IMG/VR virus record: IMGVR_UViG_3300027503_000005
DNA: 13,617 nucleotides
Source: a virus
Reading direction: 5' to 3' (one strand)
Below the pieces are notes generated by a model. That model saw nothing but the letters and a program-made list of their open reading frames with translations, was not told where the DNA came from and searched no databases. This document shows positions 1 to 13,617 of the stretch, in pieces. A program made the translations under genes and the position numbers. How positions within the stretch are numbered: the stretch's first letter is position 1; each line of letters begins with the position of its first letter.

Positions 1-127
1 GCATGGGAGACTATGCCGGTCAAGATTGCTTGCTCGACGAAAGCGGCCCAGCCGCGCAGCTCACGGTCGCCAACTACTCGCACAGTGTCGGGCAGATCGT
101 AGGCGGCTCGAGCTGGGAACAGTGGCG
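1..127. repeat. Terminal direct repeat, copy 1 (identical to 13491..13617)
   Basis: Base-by-base comparison: gcatgggagactatgccggtcaag...gctgggaacagtggcg occurs at both window ends with no mismatch. Confidence 0.95.
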
Positions 128-1610
128 GGAGCAGAACAGTTTCGCCGGCGTCGACTCGAGGTTTCAGCTCCGCCCATAGTTCCGGCTCACGTTGGACAGC
201 GTAGGCGGTGACGTGAACGCGGCCGCTGTGTAGATTCCTGGCGGTGACAATAGCGAAGCCGCCTGTGGTTTTGTCTTGCTCGACTGCTGTGACGGTAGGC
301 CTGTTGGTGTCGAAATCTTTGTCGGCTGGTTCCGATTGCAGCTTCGGCCATAAGCCCACAGGCAGCCAGGGGTCGACGAATTGCACCCACTTATTGAGGT
401 GAGCGCGTAGGAACGCTTGCCGGTTAGGTCGCTGGCTTGCCGCCTCGAGCGCAGCTAGTGGAACAGTGCGGCCTAGTCCTGGATTGCCATAGGCCCAGGT
501 TTCGGGCAAATTTTCGTCGGCTTCGTCGGGCGGTGACCATTCAAGGAACAGGTGACTGCCAGCTGTGCCGGCGTCGATGTCAGCAATTCCGCGTTCGCGC
601 CAGGCTCGCATTGCGTGGCTGTTTTCGTCGCCAGCTGTTGAAAACATGGCTACCAGCGGCTCAGGTCGAGCGATGGTAGTGGGCAAGATTCCGTCGTCAA
701 TGACGCTGGCTTTCATGTCCCATATCTCATCGCACAGGAACAGGTCGACGCTTTTACCGTGGATACTGTCCGAAGCTGCTACCGGCTCGAATATCGAGCC
801 GTCAACCAGGGTTAGCCGTTCGCGGCCAGCTCCTCGAGAAACTTTCTCGACAGCGCCTTCGTAGCGTTCCTCGAAAATTCTGACAATGGCAGCCCACTGA
901 TCGACAGCAAGGTTCCGGCTGTTTGCAGCCAGTACCACAGTCTGAGGGCCTTTCTCAGCTGCTCGATGGGTCAACCAGTGGATCGCGAGCAACCTGAGCA
1001 AATAGCTTTTGCCGTTTTGTCGAGCTACCGAAACTAAAGCGGTCCGGACACCTGGGCGCAGCAATCTTTCGGCCGCGTAAATCTGCCAGGGCATTAGCTC
1101 GATGCCGAGGCGTTCAGCTAGCTGTTGGAGGAGGGGGCCATCGGTCGGGCCGCCTGGGTCCGGCGTTGCTAATCGGGGGAGATCATGCCCCATAATTGCA
1201 GGCAGGTCAGCCGCAGCGCTGTTTCGTGCCGTTTCAGGCACCTTTTGGGGTATTTTTTTGAGAGGGTGCGCTGGGGCTTCCAGGGGGTCACTAAAAAAAT
1301 CCGGCGAGGGCTTTGGAATCGGTCGGCTTTTTGGAAGCTGGTTTGGTCGGCCTGTTGTGTCGCTGTGTGGCAGCTTCCGTTTTTTGAGCGCTGCCCCTAA
1401 CCTGGCGCCGTCTTTGCTGTTGCAGGATAGGCAGGCTGGGCGCAGGTTCTCGAGGTCGTCTGTGCCGCCGAGTGCGTGAGCGATGATGTGGTCAACACTT
1501 TCGGCCGGCATACCACAGCGAAAGCATGGGGGCGGGTCCGATAGGGTACCGCCGTAGATCCCATAGACTGCCGCTTTGATTTTTGGGCCGTAGCCTCGAT
1601 TGGTTGCCAT
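1..1610 (-). CDS. HNH endonuclease fused to the large terminase subunit. This is the 5' part of the gene; it runs off base 1 and continues at 13490..13307. Full length is 597 aa.
   Basis: This ORF is missing from the supplied track because it is open at the window edge, so I translated it by hand. It starts at the ATG at 1610..1608: MATNRGYGPKIKAAVYGIYGGTLSDPPPCFRCGMPAESVDHIIAHALGGTDDLENLRPACLSCNSKDG. That segment has CxxC...DH...N...CxxCN, the HNH zinc-finger signature. A basic, Pro-rich linker of about 80 aa follows. The terminase ATPase then shows Walker A (VARQNGKS) and Walker B (VDLFLCDE). The frame is continuous with the 88-aa ORF at 13307..13573, because 1610-83 is divisible by 3. Confidence 0.85.
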   Translation of the reverse strand, partial: MATNRGYGPKIKAAVYGIYGGTLSDPPPCFRCGMPAESVDHIIAHALGGTDDLENLRPACLSCNSKDGARLGAALKKRKLPHSDTTGRPNQLPKSRPIPKPSPDFFSDPLEAPAHPLKKIPQKVPETARNSAAADLPAIMGHDLPRLATPDPGGPTDGPLLQQLAERLGIELMPWQIYAAERLLRPGVRTALVSVARQNGKSYLLRLLAIHWLTHRAAEKGPQTVVLAANSRNLAVDQWAAIVRIFEERYEGAVEKVSRGAGRERLTLVDGSIFEPVAASDSIHGKSVDLFLCDEIWDMKASVIDDGILPTTIARPEPLVAMFSTAGDENSHAMRAWRERGIADIDAGTAGSHLFLEWSPPDEADENLPETWAYGNPGLGRTVPLAALEAASQRPNRQAFLRAHLNKWVQFVDPWLPVGLWPKLQSEPADKDFDTNRPTVTAVEQDKTTGGFAIVTARNLHSGRVHVTAYAVQREPELWAELKPRVDAGETVLLPPLFPARAAYDLPDTVRVVGDRELRGWAAFVEQAILTGIVSH

Positions 1611-3999: not shown

Positions 4000-4064
4000 G
4001 GCTTGCCTCGCAAATTGTGGTTGCAGCTGTTTGGGCGCAGCTGTGCGCCTGTTTTCTCGCTCAT
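3996..4064 (-). CDS. 22-aa leader-like micro-ORF
   Basis: The sequence is MSEKTGAQLRPNSCNHNLRGKP. It is the first ORF after the promoter-like site. It has a strong SD (AGAAAGGTTAAAGATG) and its stop overlaps the next ATG. It may serve only for translational coupling. Confidence 0.3.
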   Translation of the reverse strand: MSEKTGAQLRPNSCNHNLRGKP

Positions 4065-4104
4065 CTTTAACCTTTCTTAGTGCGCCGATGGTGGCACAGT
4101 CGCG

Positions 4105-4133
4105 ACGTTATTGTGTCGGCTTGCCTGTGTCAA
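4105..4133 (-). promoter_or_regulatory. SigA/sigma70-like promoter candidate for the early operon
   Basis: The minus strand reads TTGACA (4133..4128), then 17 nt, then TAACGT (4110..4105), which fits TANNNT. It lies at the edge of the second-largest non-coding gap (4065..4107), and the -10 element overlaps the TAA stop of the upstream gene. Confidence 0.4.
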
Positions 4134-4525: not shown

Positions 4526-5191
4526 TCAGATTTTGCCTTCATTGCGGGGCAGGACTGCTAAAGCGTCGAGCCAGGTGGCGGGCGCTGGGCTGATTACCTG
4601 CACGCCGAGAAATTCGAGCGCCTGGACCTGTGACCAGTCTGTAAGCGCCACTTTGCTGTTTCCGGCAGCGTGGTAGGCGCGTGGCGGGTTGAAACGATGA
4701 TCTACTAGGATTACTGATTTCATGTCGTCTGTCTCCGGTTGTGGTGGGGTTGAATATGCGGGGCGGCCGAGGCTTACTGCTTCGGGGTAGTACCGGCGAA
4801 AGATTCCGACCTTGTCGCCGACGTTGCCTTCGATTGTTGTGAGGCTGTCGCCGTTATTCGATAGGACAATGCCGACGTGGTCGAGGGCGCCTACGTTGTC
4901 CCACTCGAAGAAAACGACGTCGCCAGGTTGAGCTTCGCGGCTGTTGCTAATTAGTCGGCCCTGATTGGCGAACCATAAGGCGCCGGCATCGCACCAGGCG
5001 AAGCCTTTATCTGTTTGCGCTGGTAAAGGTAGGCCGGCATCGTAGAAAACGCGGCTGACCCACATAGCGCACCAGGGGCCGCGTATGCCGTACCAGTCGG
5101 TGATGCCTGGCACGTTGTTAGAACCTGGCGGCTGTTCTGATACTCGAGACCAGGCGGCCGCTGATGCGAAAACGTCGCTAGCTGTTGTCAT
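4526..5191 (-). CDS. Endolysin with an N-terminal CHAP cysteine peptidase domain and an uncharacterised C-terminal domain
   Basis: The catalytic Cys context GPWCAMWVSRV, the His context ALDHVGIV and the TIEGN motif are the CHAP / NlpC-P60-like signature. The roughly 70 aa after the PPQPE linker are of unknown type. Confidence 0.85.
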   Translation of the reverse strand: MTTASDVFASAAAWSRVSEQPPGSNNVPGITDWYGIRGPWCAMWVSRVFYDAGLPLPAQTDKGFAWCDAGALWFANQGRLISNSREAQPGDVVFFEWDNVGALDHVGIVLSNNGDSLTTIEGNVGDKVGIFRRYYPEAVSLGRPAYSTPPQPETDDMKSVILVDHRFNPPRAYHAAGNSKVALTDWSQVQALEFLGVQVISPAPATWLDALAVLPRNEGKI

Positions 5192-9387: not shown

Positions 9388-9768
9388 CTAGGCCTTCGTG
9401 ATCGTTCCCTCGACGGGGAGCGAAAGCGAAAAGCTGAGCGGGTCGCCAGCTGCGCCGCCTGCCGGTGGTTTGCGGCCTGCGACTTCGCAGGTGAAGGTCA
9501 CGCCGTTGATATCCATGACAGCGGTGAGCGTTGAGCCTGACGTTGAGGCGGTCCACAGCAGATCGCAAAGGCTGTCAACTTCGCCGAAATCCTGGTAGCC
9601 CTCGATTGCGAGCGCGTAGGTTTCCTGGTTGGCGGTGTAGGTGCCGCAGAACGTGCGAACCTGTGTTTCGCTGTTGCTGGTTTCGAGGCGGGCGTTTGAG
9701 AGCTGGCATTCATAGTCGACAGCCTCGAGCGACAAGGTGAGCGTCGAGATTAGTACGGGGGCGGGCAT
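9388..9768 (-). CDS. Candidate major tail protein (126 aa)
   Basis: The call rests on position (after the terminator-like gene and before the tape measure), a beta-rich sequence, and a good SD (CAGGAGACTGAAACCATG). I recognised no diagnostic motif. Confidence 0.45.
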   Translation of the reverse strand: MPAPVLISTLTLSLEAVDYECQLSNARLETSNSETQVRTFCGTYTANQETYALAIEGYQDFGEVDSLCDLLWTASTSGSTLTAVMDINGVTFTCEVAGRKPPAGGAAGDPLSFSLSLPVEGTITKA

Positions 9769-10560: not shown

Positions 10561-12057
10561 CTAGGACAGGTCGCAGTAAGCGAAGGCGCCAGGGTATCCC
10601 ACTGACAAAGCGCCGTAGCCGTACACTCCGAGGTCGATTCCGAGGATCGAAACGTCGACTGCGCGGATTTCGACTGGTTGACCTGCGCGTTCCCACCAGG
10701 TAGCGCCGAGGCTTGAGCCTAATAAAGCATGGCCGGCCGGAAGGTCGCGCTCGAGGTAGACAGTGAGGCCGTCTGCGCTCATGGTCGGGGTCATGCTGCC
10801 GAATTGTACGCGGCCGTCCCAGAAAGCTGGGCGGTCCGAATCAGCCAGGCTGATCCAGGCGGGCAATAAATCGGGAGCGATAGCCAGGAAAAGCGGGCCT
10901 GGCGGGGTTGCTGAAAAATCGAGGGCGCCGATCAAGCCGCTGACGATGTCGACTGGTGACGATGAGCCTACTGTTGTCGCTCCGCCTGCTGCTGTAATGA
11001 GGCCGGACACTGCCGCGGCGTTTGTTTTTTGGCCGAAGCTTACCGAAAGCGCCTCGAGGATAGCTGCGACAGCTGAGGGGTCGGAACGGTCGACTGCTTG
11101 AATCGAAAGTTCGTTAGCGCCGGCGAAGGTGCGAACGGATACTTCCTCGAGGGTGATCGAGGCGTCATCGCTGTTGACTTCGTCGAATTCGTCAACCTGC
11201 TCGTCAACGGTGGGCTTGTTGTCCCAGGCGGGGTAAGTGACCTTCATGCCGGAAGCGGGCAAAGCGCGGTTGGCGATGGCGTTGATGGTTGGGCGGCCTG
11301 GGTTGATGAGGCCGACGATTTCGCCGACGTAGGCAGGCGGGACAATGCCGGCGAGGTCGGTGGTGGTTGATTGTGAAAGCGCAGCGCGTACTTCAGCGAC
11401 GGATAAATCGCCTTTATTTGCTGACGCGATGAGCGACGCGACGCCGGCCAGGTCGAGGCTTTTGGCCGCTGGGCGGGTCGAGTGCGGGATTGGGGCAGCT
11501 GCGACGATTGTCGGCTCGGCTGCTGCTTCTACTGCTTCGGGTTCTTGCATTGGTTCGGGTTCCTGTTCTGTTTGGGGTTCCGGTTGGGGTTCAGTGTTGG
11601 TATTTTCTGACGCTGCTACTGCCATAGCTCGAGCATCGTCGAAAGCTGGAAGCGCTACCTGGCTTACTTCGCGCAGCTGGCTGGCTGCTACTTCTAAAGC
11701 TTCGGCGCTGTGTTCGTAGTCGATTAGGTCGACTCCGACGCTGAGGCCGTCGCGTAGTTTCTCGGCTGCTTCTAACAGTGCCAGGTCGCCGGCTGGTGTT
11801 TCAGGCACTCGAAAACGGCCGTAGAGTCCTGCTTCGTCTTGCCAGGCTTCCTCGAGGTAGCCGAGTGGAGCTTCGGCCTGGTGATCGCGCAGCAATTTGA
11901 CGCGGTCGAGCTGTTCAGGCAGTTGGACACTGCCAGGAGCGAAGCGGGTAGGGCCGGCGCTGGTGTTACCGATGACGCCGAACGGGACTAGCCGGCCGAC
12001 GATAGAACGTCGCTCGAGGTCGGCTGCTGTGATGCTGTAGCTGGCTTGAATTTTCAT
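10561..12057 (-). CDS. Prohead (HK97-type S78) protease fused to an HK97-fold major capsid protein (498 aa)
   Basis: The N-terminal ~150 aa carry LLRDHQAEAPLGYLEE and DGLSVGVDL, the His and Ser contexts of HK97-family prohead proteases. An acidic Pro/Glu linker (TEPQPEPQTEQEPEPMQEPEAVEAAAEP) follows. The remaining ~300 aa are capsid-like. The gene lies directly after the portal gene. Confidence 0.85.
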   Translation of the reverse strand: MKIQASYSITAADLERRSIVGRLVPFGVIGNTSAGPTRFAPGSVQLPEQLDRVKLLRDHQAEAPLGYLEEAWQDEAGLYGRFRVPETPAGDLALLEAAEKLRDGLSVGVDLIDYEHSAEALEVAASQLREVSQVALPAFDDARAMAVAASENTNTEPQPEPQTEQEPEPMQEPEAVEAAAEPTIVAAAPIPHSTRPAAKSLDLAGVASLIASANKGDLSVAEVRAALSQSTTTDLAGIVPPAYVGEIVGLINPGRPTINAIANRALPASGMKVTYPAWDNKPTVDEQVDEFDEVNSDDASITLEEVSVRTFAGANELSIQAVDRSDPSAVAAILEALSVSFGQKTNAAAVSGLITAAGGATTVGSSSPVDIVSGLIGALDFSATPPGPLFLAIAPDLLPAWISLADSDRPAFWDGRVQFGSMTPTMSADGLTVYLERDLPAGHALLGSSLGATWWERAGQPVEIRAVDVSILGIDLGVYGYGALSVGYPGAFAYCDLS

Positions 12058-13164: not shown

Positions 13165-13296
13165 TCATTCGTCAACGGGAAGCGGTGACGGTAATACTGT
13201 GCGAGCTTGCTCGAGCTTTGCTGCTAGCTGAGCTGACGTAGCTGCGACGAAAAGGCCAACGATGAACGCTGCGACGATGCTGAGAGCTGTTTTCAT
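13165..13296 (-). CDS. 43-aa single-pass membrane peptide between the terminase and portal genes
   Basis: Hand translation gives MKTALSIVAAFIVGLFVAATSAQLAAKLEQARTVLPSPLPVDE. The ATG lies 10 nt after the terminase stop. Confidence 0.45.
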   Translation of the reverse strand: MKTALSIVAAFIVGLFVAATSAQLAAKLEQARTVLPSPLPVDE

Positions 13297-13306
13297 GGCC
13301 GGCACT

Positions 13307-13617
13307 CTATCCGAAAGCGATTACTGGAGCGGGCGCCGGTTTTTGCAGCTTTGTAGCTTCAGCAACAGCCCACACCATCGCTCGAACAGCGTGGACACTC
13401 GCACCAGGTACCGCCGTACCGATCGCTAGGCCGCCGTCTCGCACTCTCGAGGTAGTGCGGCCAAGCTGCTCAGCTAGTTGTACGTCACCAGCATGGGAGA
13501 CTATGCCGGTCAAGATTGCTTGCTCGACGAAAGCGGCCCAGCCGCGCAGCTCACGGTCGCCAACTACTCGCACAGTGTCGGGCAGATCGTAGGCGGCTCG
13601 AGCTGGGAACAGTGGCG
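13307..13617 (-). CDS. Large terminase subunit, 3' end (the C-terminal nuclease-domain region of the gene listed at 1..1610)
   Basis: The frame is open to the window edge and identical in sequence and frame to 1..127. The stop TAG is at 13309..13307. The track shows only the internal-Met fragment 13307..13573. Confidence 0.8.
   Translation of the reverse strand, partial: PLFPARAAYDLPDTVRVVGDRELRGWAAFVEQAILTGIVSHAGDVQLAEQLGRTTSRVRDGGLAIGTAVPGASVHAVRAMVWAVAEATKLQKPAPAPVIAFG
13491..13617. repeat. Terminal direct repeat, copy 2 (identical to 1..127)
   Basis: Exact 127/127 identity with the window start. Confidence 0.95.

Follow-up and report, generated by a model that had tools for sequence, protein, structure and literature searches.

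Genome and open reading frame

The viral DNA analyzed here (IMG/VR record IMGVR_UViG_3300027503_000005; the whole stretch is called the window below) is 13,617 nucleotides (nt) long with a G+C content of 57.7%. It contains an open reading frame (ORF) of 597 amino acids (aa) in which an HNH nuclease domain is joined to a large terminase subunit (TerL). Positions 1 to 127 are identical to positions 13491 to 13617. Given this exact 127-nt direct repeat at its ends, the window is a circular or concatemer-derived assembly with a unit of 13,490 bp. The terminal overlap comes from the assembly of a circular or concatemeric molecule and is not a biological repeat.

All long ORFs of the window are on the minus strand, and the coordinates of genes and domains given below refer to that strand. 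The 597-aa ORF begins with an ATG at position 1610, runs down to position 1, and continues across the circular junction from 13490 to 13307. The first part (1 to 1610) encodes aa 1 to 536 plus 2 nt. The second part (13307 to 13490) is joined to position 1 and encodes aa 537 to 597 and the stop codon. The start codon overlaps the stop codon of a 27-aa upstream ORF (TAATG). There is no stop codon between the HNH and TerL parts.

Domains of the fusion protein

The HNH domain (beta-beta-alpha-Me fold) occupies aa 5 to 80 (1371 to 1598). Pfam matched PF01844 at aa 29 to 69 (E value, 7.6e-10) and also HNH_5. The zinc ligands are C29, C32, C60, and C63, and the other motif residues are D40-H41, N55, and N64. 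It is followed by a net-positive linker (aa 81 to 139; 1194 to 1370; net charge, +6) that is predicted to be disordered. The linker is hypervariable among relatives except for one island of conserved DNA, described below.

The TerL ASCE (additional strand, conserved glutamate) ATPase domain spans aa 140 to 432 (315 to 1193). It contains a PR(L/I)xTP motif at aa 145 to 150, read as PRLxTP in the window. This motif is the natural N terminus of unfused actinophage TerLs, so the HNH domain and linker are an N-terminal addition. Walker A is VARQNGKS (aa 195 to 202; 1005 to 1028), Walker B is DLFLCDE (aa 289 to 295; 726 to 746), and STAG is at aa 324 to 327. The forms RQNGK(S/T), DLxxxDE, and STAG are invariant across the family. 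The RNase H-like nuclease domain starts at aa 436. Its N-terminal part is at 1 to 305 and its C-terminal part is at 13331 to 13490.

PHROG 9 ("terminase large subunit") covers aa 170 to 468 (E value, 1.4e-41). TerL_ATPase was weak in Pfam (E value, 4.9e-4). A family profile matched HK97 TerL (6z6d; E value, 1.1e-20) as well as the HNH structures 4h9d and 5h0m. An AlphaFold2 (AF2) model was built on 53 sequences and had a mean predicted local distance difference test score (pLDDT) of 88.3. It was confident for an HNH fold at aa 5 to 80 and for TerL at aa 140 to 590, and pLDDT was below 50 at aa 81 to 131. The secondary structure of the model supports the RNase H-like fold (beta1 at 440 to 445, beta4 at 491 to 494, and a hairpin at 549 to 562). 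The top Foldseek match of the model was again 6z6d (E value, 1.8e-21), with 499 columns aligned to full-length HK97 TerL. Foldseek also matched 5m1f, the isolated G20c terminase nuclease domain. An original prediction, made from the letters of the window, had placed HNH and terminase domains in one ORF, named both Walker motifs, and related the arrangement to that of HK97-like cos phages. Pfam, PHROG 9, the family profile, and the AF2 and Foldseek results bear out the two domains, both motifs are as it described them, and 6z6d is the best match by sequence profile and by structure.

Conservation of the fusion

The same architecture was found in two clades of homologues. Seven homologues of about 600 aa (clade 1) are 60 to 75% identical to the window protein and cover 97 to 100% of it. 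Six of them are on contigs of 10 to 14 kb with matching gene order, and one is on a contig of 29.5 kb. The second clade (clade 2) is about 33% identical, has equal architecture, and occurs on contigs of up to ~17 kb. A profile search of 1.84 billion representatives retrieved at least 30 cluster representatives (50% identity) that align end to end. Relatives of the terminase are encoded on 427 IMG/VR stretches.

We took a census of the reading frame in the nonredundant TerL ORFs of all loci fetched. An HNH domain was present in the same ORF in 60, the frame was open to the contig start in 29, and a stop lay upstream of TerL in 3 (two distant loci and one odd locus). All 60 of the nonredundant junction-spanning relatives that carry both domains thus keep a single ORF. 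The HNH-TerL fusion is real, as the original prediction had claimed, and the single frame is kept in all close relatives. The database search for the same architecture that was suggested along with it gave the homologues of clades 1 and 2 described above. Linker length ranged from 36 to 80 aa in 17 aligned fusions and the linker sequence varied, with the frame always kept. The reading frame through the linker appears to be under selection.

Two kinds of candidate were rejected. Homologues of 430 to 490 aa looked like unfused TerLs, but their frame is open to the contig edge and they are therefore truncated. EvenBluerMoon gp2 looked like a split HNH gene in frame with a terminase (a tblastn segment at query aa 40 to 423). 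Its translation is a helix-turn-helix (HTH) protein without an HNH motif.

Nuclease active sites

The nuclease residues of HK97 TerL are D302, D388, and D471, with K463 nearby (PMC9410871). The corresponding residues in the window are E444 (site 1; 279 to 281), P495 (site 2; 126 to 128), and H570 (site 3; 13391 to 13393). HMMER, hhalign, MAFFT, and the AF2 secondary structure agree on these equivalents, and P495 falls just after beta4. The lysine equivalent to K463 is absent, with V564 in the hmmalign column and T562 in that of hhalign. The window thus has E-P-H where HK97 has D-D-D. As aligned, the RNase H-like site has noncarboxylate residues at two of its three canonical carboxylate positions.

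The same sites were tallied in 55 demonstrable fusions. Site 1 is E in 38 and D in 17. Site 2 is acidic in 2 of the 55. Site 3 is E in 34, H in 9, and T, Y, A, S, W, or F in the other 12, so that it is nonacidic in 21. The zinc and catalytic residues of the HNH domain (C29, C32, D40-H41, N55, C60, C63, and N64) and the Walker motifs are nearly invariant in the same set. Kaijohn and MooKitty, two cultured phages with a separate HNH gene, keep Asp at sites 2 and 3; MooKitty was read manually, since the automated alignment was offset. The pattern suggests that selection on the RNase H-like site, whose triad is degenerate, has been relaxed and that the HNH domain, whose residues hardly vary, may do at least part of the cutting.

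Small terminase

No other ORF of the window matched a family of small terminase subunits (TerS) in PHROGs or Pfam. A tblastn search of the six-frame translation of the window with TerS candidates of relatives and with HK97 TerS found nothing. No coding sequence precedes TerL at the left end in relatives. The statement of the original prediction that the genome has no small terminase gene agrees with these results from PHROGs, Pfam, and tblastn.

A 152-aa HTH_36 protein (2318 to 1860) was considered as a TerS and rejected. It matches PHROG 1032 ("replication initiation protein"; E value, 2e-28) and PF13730, and its gene contains iterons. Four of these, of 19 to 24 nt (GGGTGTCACTGTGACAGGTCGTTT-like, spaced 21 to 32 nt), are at 1943 to 2041 in the 3' part of the gene. 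The relative L178 has four similar iterons at 9486 to 9581 in the homologous gene. Because the nearest upstream DNA-binding gene holds the four iterons, it is a replication initiator with its own origin, of the lambda O/ori type in appearance, and not a TerS.

Putative cos site in the linker-coding DNA

A putative cohesive end site (cos) region lies in the linker-coding DNA at 1247 to 1302. It has a T7 run (1293 to 1299), a core (1260 to 1281) that reads GGAAGCCCCAGCGCACCCTCTC, and an A7 run (1253 to 1259). Positions 1254 to 1302 read GGATTTTTTTAGTGACCCCCTGGAAGCCCCAGCGCACCCTCTCAAAAAAA. The island AAGCCCCNNCGCNCC is conserved in clade 1 linker DNA that is otherwise unalignable. The motif homologous to that of relatives, GGAAGCCCCAGCGCACCC, is at 1264 to 1281 and occurs nowhere else in the window.

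Translation of the core gives APAHP in the window and PPRP in clade 2, from different frames. The T-run is translated as FF, FL, or VFL among relatives. The core and T-run are thus read in different frames, and the conservation therefore lies in the DNA and not in the peptide.

The two runs form a perfect 8-nt inverted pair (ATTTTTTT/AAAAAAAT) whose arms are 33 nt apart and enclose the cos-like core. In MooKitty, a similar T-run precedes the end, and the start is followed by an A-rich stretch.

The recorded end of MooKitty reads ...GTTTTTTTAAGAATTGAAGCGCCAGGAAGCCCCGCGCCCC (longer stretch, AGTTTTTTTAAGAATTGAAGCGCCAGGAAGCCCCGCGCCCC), and its counterpart in the window is GATTTTTTTAGTGACCCCCTGGAAGCCCCAGCGCACCC. 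The T-run is common to both. The core is alike save for two single-base insertions, and the window has no stop there. The clade 1 contig L256, whose TerL is 66% identical to that of the window, starts immediately after the core. From these alignments the cos site of the window would be at about 1260 to 1281. The predicted 3' single-stranded overhang is about CCAGCGCACCC (1264 to 1274, ±2 nt), placed by alignment to the clade 2 sequence GCC|CCCGCGCCCA|TCTC and to the L256 start. The right duplex end would be ...GGAAGCC (1275 to 1281), and the left end would start with TCTCAAAAAAA (from 1263 downwards).

DNA ends in relatives

We surveyed the ends of 80 HNH-side and 80 TerL-side IMG/VR contigs. 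Forty-two of the HNH-side contigs end in the linker; 31 of these end 16 to 22 nt past the T-run and 18 end in GCC. In 29 of the TerL-side contigs, the start lies fewer than 130 nt upstream of the PRL motif and the frame is open from the first nucleotide. Many clade 2 contigs start 35 to 55 nt upstream of the query match (from about aa 135 to 141), just before the PR(L/I)xTP motif, and they start at the identical base across different samples.

In one clade 2 subclade (P0013), right-hand ends are at ...CATCAGNNNNNGCC (...TTGCC) and left-hand starts are at TCTC.... Two further contigs, from another collection and other samples, start at the same point. Between the ends and the starts is a G+C-rich 10-nt sequence, CCCGCGCCCA, that is present in junction-spanning contigs only. 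Three right-end contigs of this subclade carry one extra A that is unmatched in the junction-spanning sequence. A second clade 2 subclade has an equal pattern with a 6-nt gap (CCCGCA). The gap between right end and left start is therefore 10 nt in L143 and L155 and 6 nt in L099. Because the overhang of a 3'-overhang cos is lost from both ends in assemblies (PMC5000459), we read the gap as such a cos. The relatives thus have physical DNA ends in the linker-coding DNA; the cut is staggered, and the 3' overhang measures about 10 nt (6 nt in one subclade). A search of metagenome contigs with the window protein returned 2 loci only, without clade 1 ends.

Comparison with known packaging systems

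HK97 has a separate HNH protein (gp74), TerS (gp1), and TerL (gp2) and a cos with a 3' overhang (PMC9410871). The window resembles it in several ways. Its TerL is best matched by 6z6d. Its HNH domain, with the catalytic His, adjoins the putative cos and the terminase on the circular map. Its portal, S78 protease, and capsid are of the HK97 type. Its relatives show staggered cutting that leaves 3' overhangs of about 10 nt. It differs from HK97 in that the HNH domain is covalently fused to the N terminus of TerL and no TerS was detected. The putative cos is inside a coding sequence, whereas that of HK97 is between genes, and the D302/D388/D471 triad is E/P/H.

The closest cultured relatives of the TerL, at about 25% identity, are MooKitty (Arthrobacter, Adaiavirus; 15,972 bp) and Kaijohn (Microbacterium cluster EE; 17,426 bp). 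In both, the HNH gene comes last, at the right end, and two small genes precede the terminase at the left. The small actinophages (MooKitty, Kaijohn and cluster EE, and Arthrobacter cluster AN; PMC5679792) share with the window a tiny genome, a capsid-protease fusion, and a single "terminase" gene. Their HNH gene abuts the right end and they have no annotated TerS. The end sequence of MooKitty (T-run and then GGAAGCCCCGCGCCCC) is nearly identical to the motif of the window. Its HNH ORF reads FF through the T-run and stops at a TGA about 20 nt before the end, whereas the window has no stop. Two small genes lie between the left end and the terminase in these phages, but none intervenes in the window. 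Their TerL keeps Asp at sites 2 and 3, whereas the triad of the window is degenerate.

In the staphylococcal cos phages phi12 and phiSLT and in SaPIbov5, packaging reportedly needs the phage HNH protein together with TerS and TerL, a finding attributed to Quiles-Puchalt et al. in 2014. Like the window, these systems have an HNH gene next to cos, and HNH is required in their cos-cutting terminase complex. Unlike the window, they use three separate proteins and require TerS.

The packaging ATPase of phi29, gp16, is a TerL homologue with a vestigial, inactive nuclease domain and works without TerS (PMC9410871). A degenerate nuclease domain and the lack of a TerS are also features of the window. 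The phi29 system differs in that its DNA is of unit length and protein primed, so that no cutting is needed. It uses a packaging RNA (pRNA) and has no HNH.

Proposed packaging mechanism

The ORF probably encodes a single-chain HNH-linker-TerL terminase of a TerS-less, HK97-type, cos-packaging phage. On the circular map the gene order is that of classical HK97 (HNH, cos, terminase) in compacted form, with no detectable TerS, no HNH stop codon, and a frame that runs through cos into TerL. HNH plausibly cooperates with TerL in cos cleavage, in cis via the covalent fusion. The original prediction had described the HNH-terminase partnership as hard-wired in one polypeptide, and this reading, of a hard-wired form of the HK97-style pair, is supported.

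The virion DNA would be linear, with a TerL lacking a start codon at the left end and an HNH lacking a stop codon at the right end. Once the DNA has been injected, annealing and ligation of the cohesive ends would restore the late gene, which only then could be translated as a 66-kDa fusion. TerL, assembled on the portal, would translocate concatemeric DNA for packaging. The flexible linker would hold the HNH domain at the N-terminal ATPase side, from where HNH would nick at cos. At least one of the two staggered nicks may be its work, and perhaps both if the RNase H-like site is inactive. The fusion protein would recognize cos through the sequence preference of HNH and the flanking T and A runs, and not through TerS. 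In vitro, DNA packaging by HK97 TerL does not depend on TerS (PMC9410871). A fuller version of this proposal is that the terminase gene is split by the genome termini and that the sole terminase is the fusion made after end joining. This fusion would cut cos within its own coding sequence without TerS, with HNH replacing a decayed RNase H-like nuclease. We offer the fuller version tentatively, as a possibility.

Several points weigh against these proposals. A TerS may be too divergent for profile methods, or a host factor may act in its place. The evidence for translation as one polypeptide is conservation of the frame, which would fit such a product. The cos site of the window is placed by homology and by one clade 1 contig start (L256), and the assembly break point of the window itself is elsewhere. 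Overhang length seems to differ between close subclades (10 and 6 nt). A capsid-protein look-up and an exact DNA pattern scan recovered no single contig with both termini, and the fragments have one true end only. Finally, the conserved E444/D, E517, H536, and E544 could form a remodelled, active RNase H-like site, in which case HNH would be only stimulatory, as in HK97. Histidine can be a metal ligand in RNase H-like nucleases.

Alternative explanations

The last of these points is the core of an alternative in which the fusion and the cos within the ORF are real and the mechanism is that of HK97. The cutting would be done by a remodelled RNase H-like site (E444, E517, H536/H570, and E544), with HNH stimulating it. 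E517 (51 of the 55 fusions), H536 (54), and E544 (45) are conserved as this would require, site 1 carries E or D throughout, and 34 and 9 fusions have E and H, respectively, at site 3. The HK97 HNH protein, gp74, stimulates terminase-mediated cos cleavage and does not replace the terminase. The acidic residue at site 2 is nevertheless retained in only 2 of the 55, and the Y, F, W, A, T, or S found at site 3 in 12 lineages are poor metal binders. The lysine equivalent to K463 has been lost in clade 1. The HNH residues are conserved much more strictly than the RNase H-like ones, and it is the phages with a free-standing HNH, Kaijohn and MooKitty, that retain Asp at sites 2 and 3. We regard an HK97-like division of labor as unlikely, though well short of improbable.

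The original prediction had suggested that the basic, Pro-rich linker may replace TerS as a peptide that recognizes the packaging site. The net charge of the linker is positive in all 17 aligned fusions (+1 to +17), and no TerS was found. The linker has no conserved peptide sequence, differs in length among the 17 as given above, and is predicted to be disordered. The apparent conserved motifs (FF...APxxP and PPRP) are DNA elements read in different frames. Their Pro, Arg, and Ala come from translation of the C/G-rich cos core, and their Phe comes from the T-run. We consider this role of the linker improbable. What stands of the original interpretation is the fusion, the HK97-type TerL, the lack of TerS, and the hard-wired partnership; it missed the putative cos inside the ORF and the degenerate nuclease site.

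Contig ends could also cluster in the linker because assemblers break at a hypervariable region, with the true cos (or a pac) elsewhere. In its favor, no other part of the genome varies as much as the linker, no contig was found to have both ends, and many contigs run across the junction. This explanation is quite improbable. The ends fall on one base across samples and subclades, at a fixed distance from the T-run, and the gap between right ends and left starts is a constant 10 nt. Several contigs carry an extra A that is absent from the junction-spanning sequence. The site is homologous to the recorded physical end of MooKitty.

A selfish homing endonuclease inserted by chance, in frame, at the 5' end of the terminase gene is very improbable. 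HNH homing endonucleases are common near phage terminase genes, and the title of one paper, [quoted passage not shown] is in keeping with such an origin. The sporadic presence and absence expected of a homing HNH was not seen. Every family member with upstream sequence, down to about 30% identity, has the HNH in constant position and frame, and that position adjoins cos, as do the packaging HNH genes of MooKitty, Kaijohn, and HK97.

Artificial joining of two genes by a sequencing or assembly error is a negligible prospect: the linker does contain 7-nt homopolymer runs, and those at 1293 to 1299 and 1253 to 1259 had been flagged at first as possible frameshift errors, but the 60 independent junction-spanning relatives, from many samples and assemblers, all keep one ORF, which excludes a homopolymer sequencing error, the changes in linker length preserve the frame, the T-run is conserved in relatives and MooKitty, and the runs form the inverted pair around the core.

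Other features of the genome and its relatives

The rest of the window is the genome of a complete minimal siphovirus with a portal, a capsid-protease fusion, tail genes, a tape measure, a CHAP endolysin, and an Rpf-like transglycosylase. The portal belongs to phrog_12 and the capsid-protease fusion to phrog_2263/phrog_80. The relative L176 (75% identical) carries PF04860, PF04586 (weak), and PF25209. TerL, portal, protease, and major capsid protein are all of the HK97 lineage.

The capsid-protease gene is at 10561 to 12057. It joins the major capsid protein (phrog_2263) to an S78-type prohead protease (phrog_80), as in cluster AN and EE actinophages. Between TerL and the portal (13165 to 13305) is a 46-aa ORF whose product has a predicted transmembrane helix. 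The clade 1 relatives L005, L176, L178, and L179 have an ORF of 44 to 66 aa in the equivalent place. Two cell wall enzymes are encoded at 2315 to 2830 and 4526 to 5191. The Rpf-like transglycosylase (PF06737), which has an N-terminal membrane anchor, is among the early genes, and the CHAP endolysin is placed after the tail genes.

L178 (29,537 nt; Logan contig from SRR31724214) is a member with 60% identity and an intact HNH-TerL gene. Its phage part (about 6400 to 21200) lies between cellular-looking genes (ThyX, enoyl coenzyme A hydratase, haloacid dehalogenase [HAD] hydrolase, and histidine phosphatase), which suggests a prophage. No integrase was seen in L178, nor were convincing attachment (att) repeats around the phage part. 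In the window, the junction would match the 108-nt intergenic region at 4000 to 4107.

Host, distribution, and significance

Both the Rpf-like domain and the identity of the nearest cultured relatives suggest that the host is an actinobacterium. Matches in genome contigs were tried as a source of hosts and rejected, because most were short phage contigs binned in metagenome-assembled genomes (MAGs) of unrelated phyla and reveal little about the host. The few Actinomycetota matches among genome contigs (Aquiluna, Acidimicrobiia, and Microbacterium) were distant or lacked the fusion. Phage contigs of the family from GTDB MAGs (L236, L238, L240, and L242) were binned in Pseudomonadales, Terriglobia, Rhodobacteraceae, and Chitinophagales, and several of them begin within the linker. 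Hosts should not be assigned from these bins.

The phage probably belongs to a large uncultured family with siphovirus-like genomes of 13 to 17 kb, whose hosts are probably Actinomycetota. More than 3,000 database proteins match the capsid of a relative at an E value below 1e-100, and the phage group is therefore abundant in metagenomes. The fusion is carried by none of 50,697 deposited phage records. Public databases contain the fusion but do not describe it, and one relative has been deposited only as [quoted passage not shown] The original prediction knew of no characterized HNH-TerL fusion; likewise, no description of such a fusion, or of an ORF running across cos, was found in the searchable literature. 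What is new relative to the HNH-assisted cos packaging of the HK97 type is one ORF across cos, no TerS, and a degenerate TerL nuclease site.

The translated cos yields apparent "protein motifs" (FF and PPRP/APAHP), and annotators should be wary of them. In linear records of such phages, the terminase would lack a start codon and the HNH a stop codon. The gene would be one of the uncommon examples that are whole only while the virus genome is circular or concatemeric. The family offers a natural minimal system, in which there is a single polypeptide, TerS is lacking, and cos spans a few tens of base pairs. It bears on how HNH and TerL share the cutting of cos and on what TerS is needed for. Its natural variants with partly or fully degraded RNase H-like sites make strand-specific nuclease roles and TerS-independent cos recognition testable with one protein and a short DNA.

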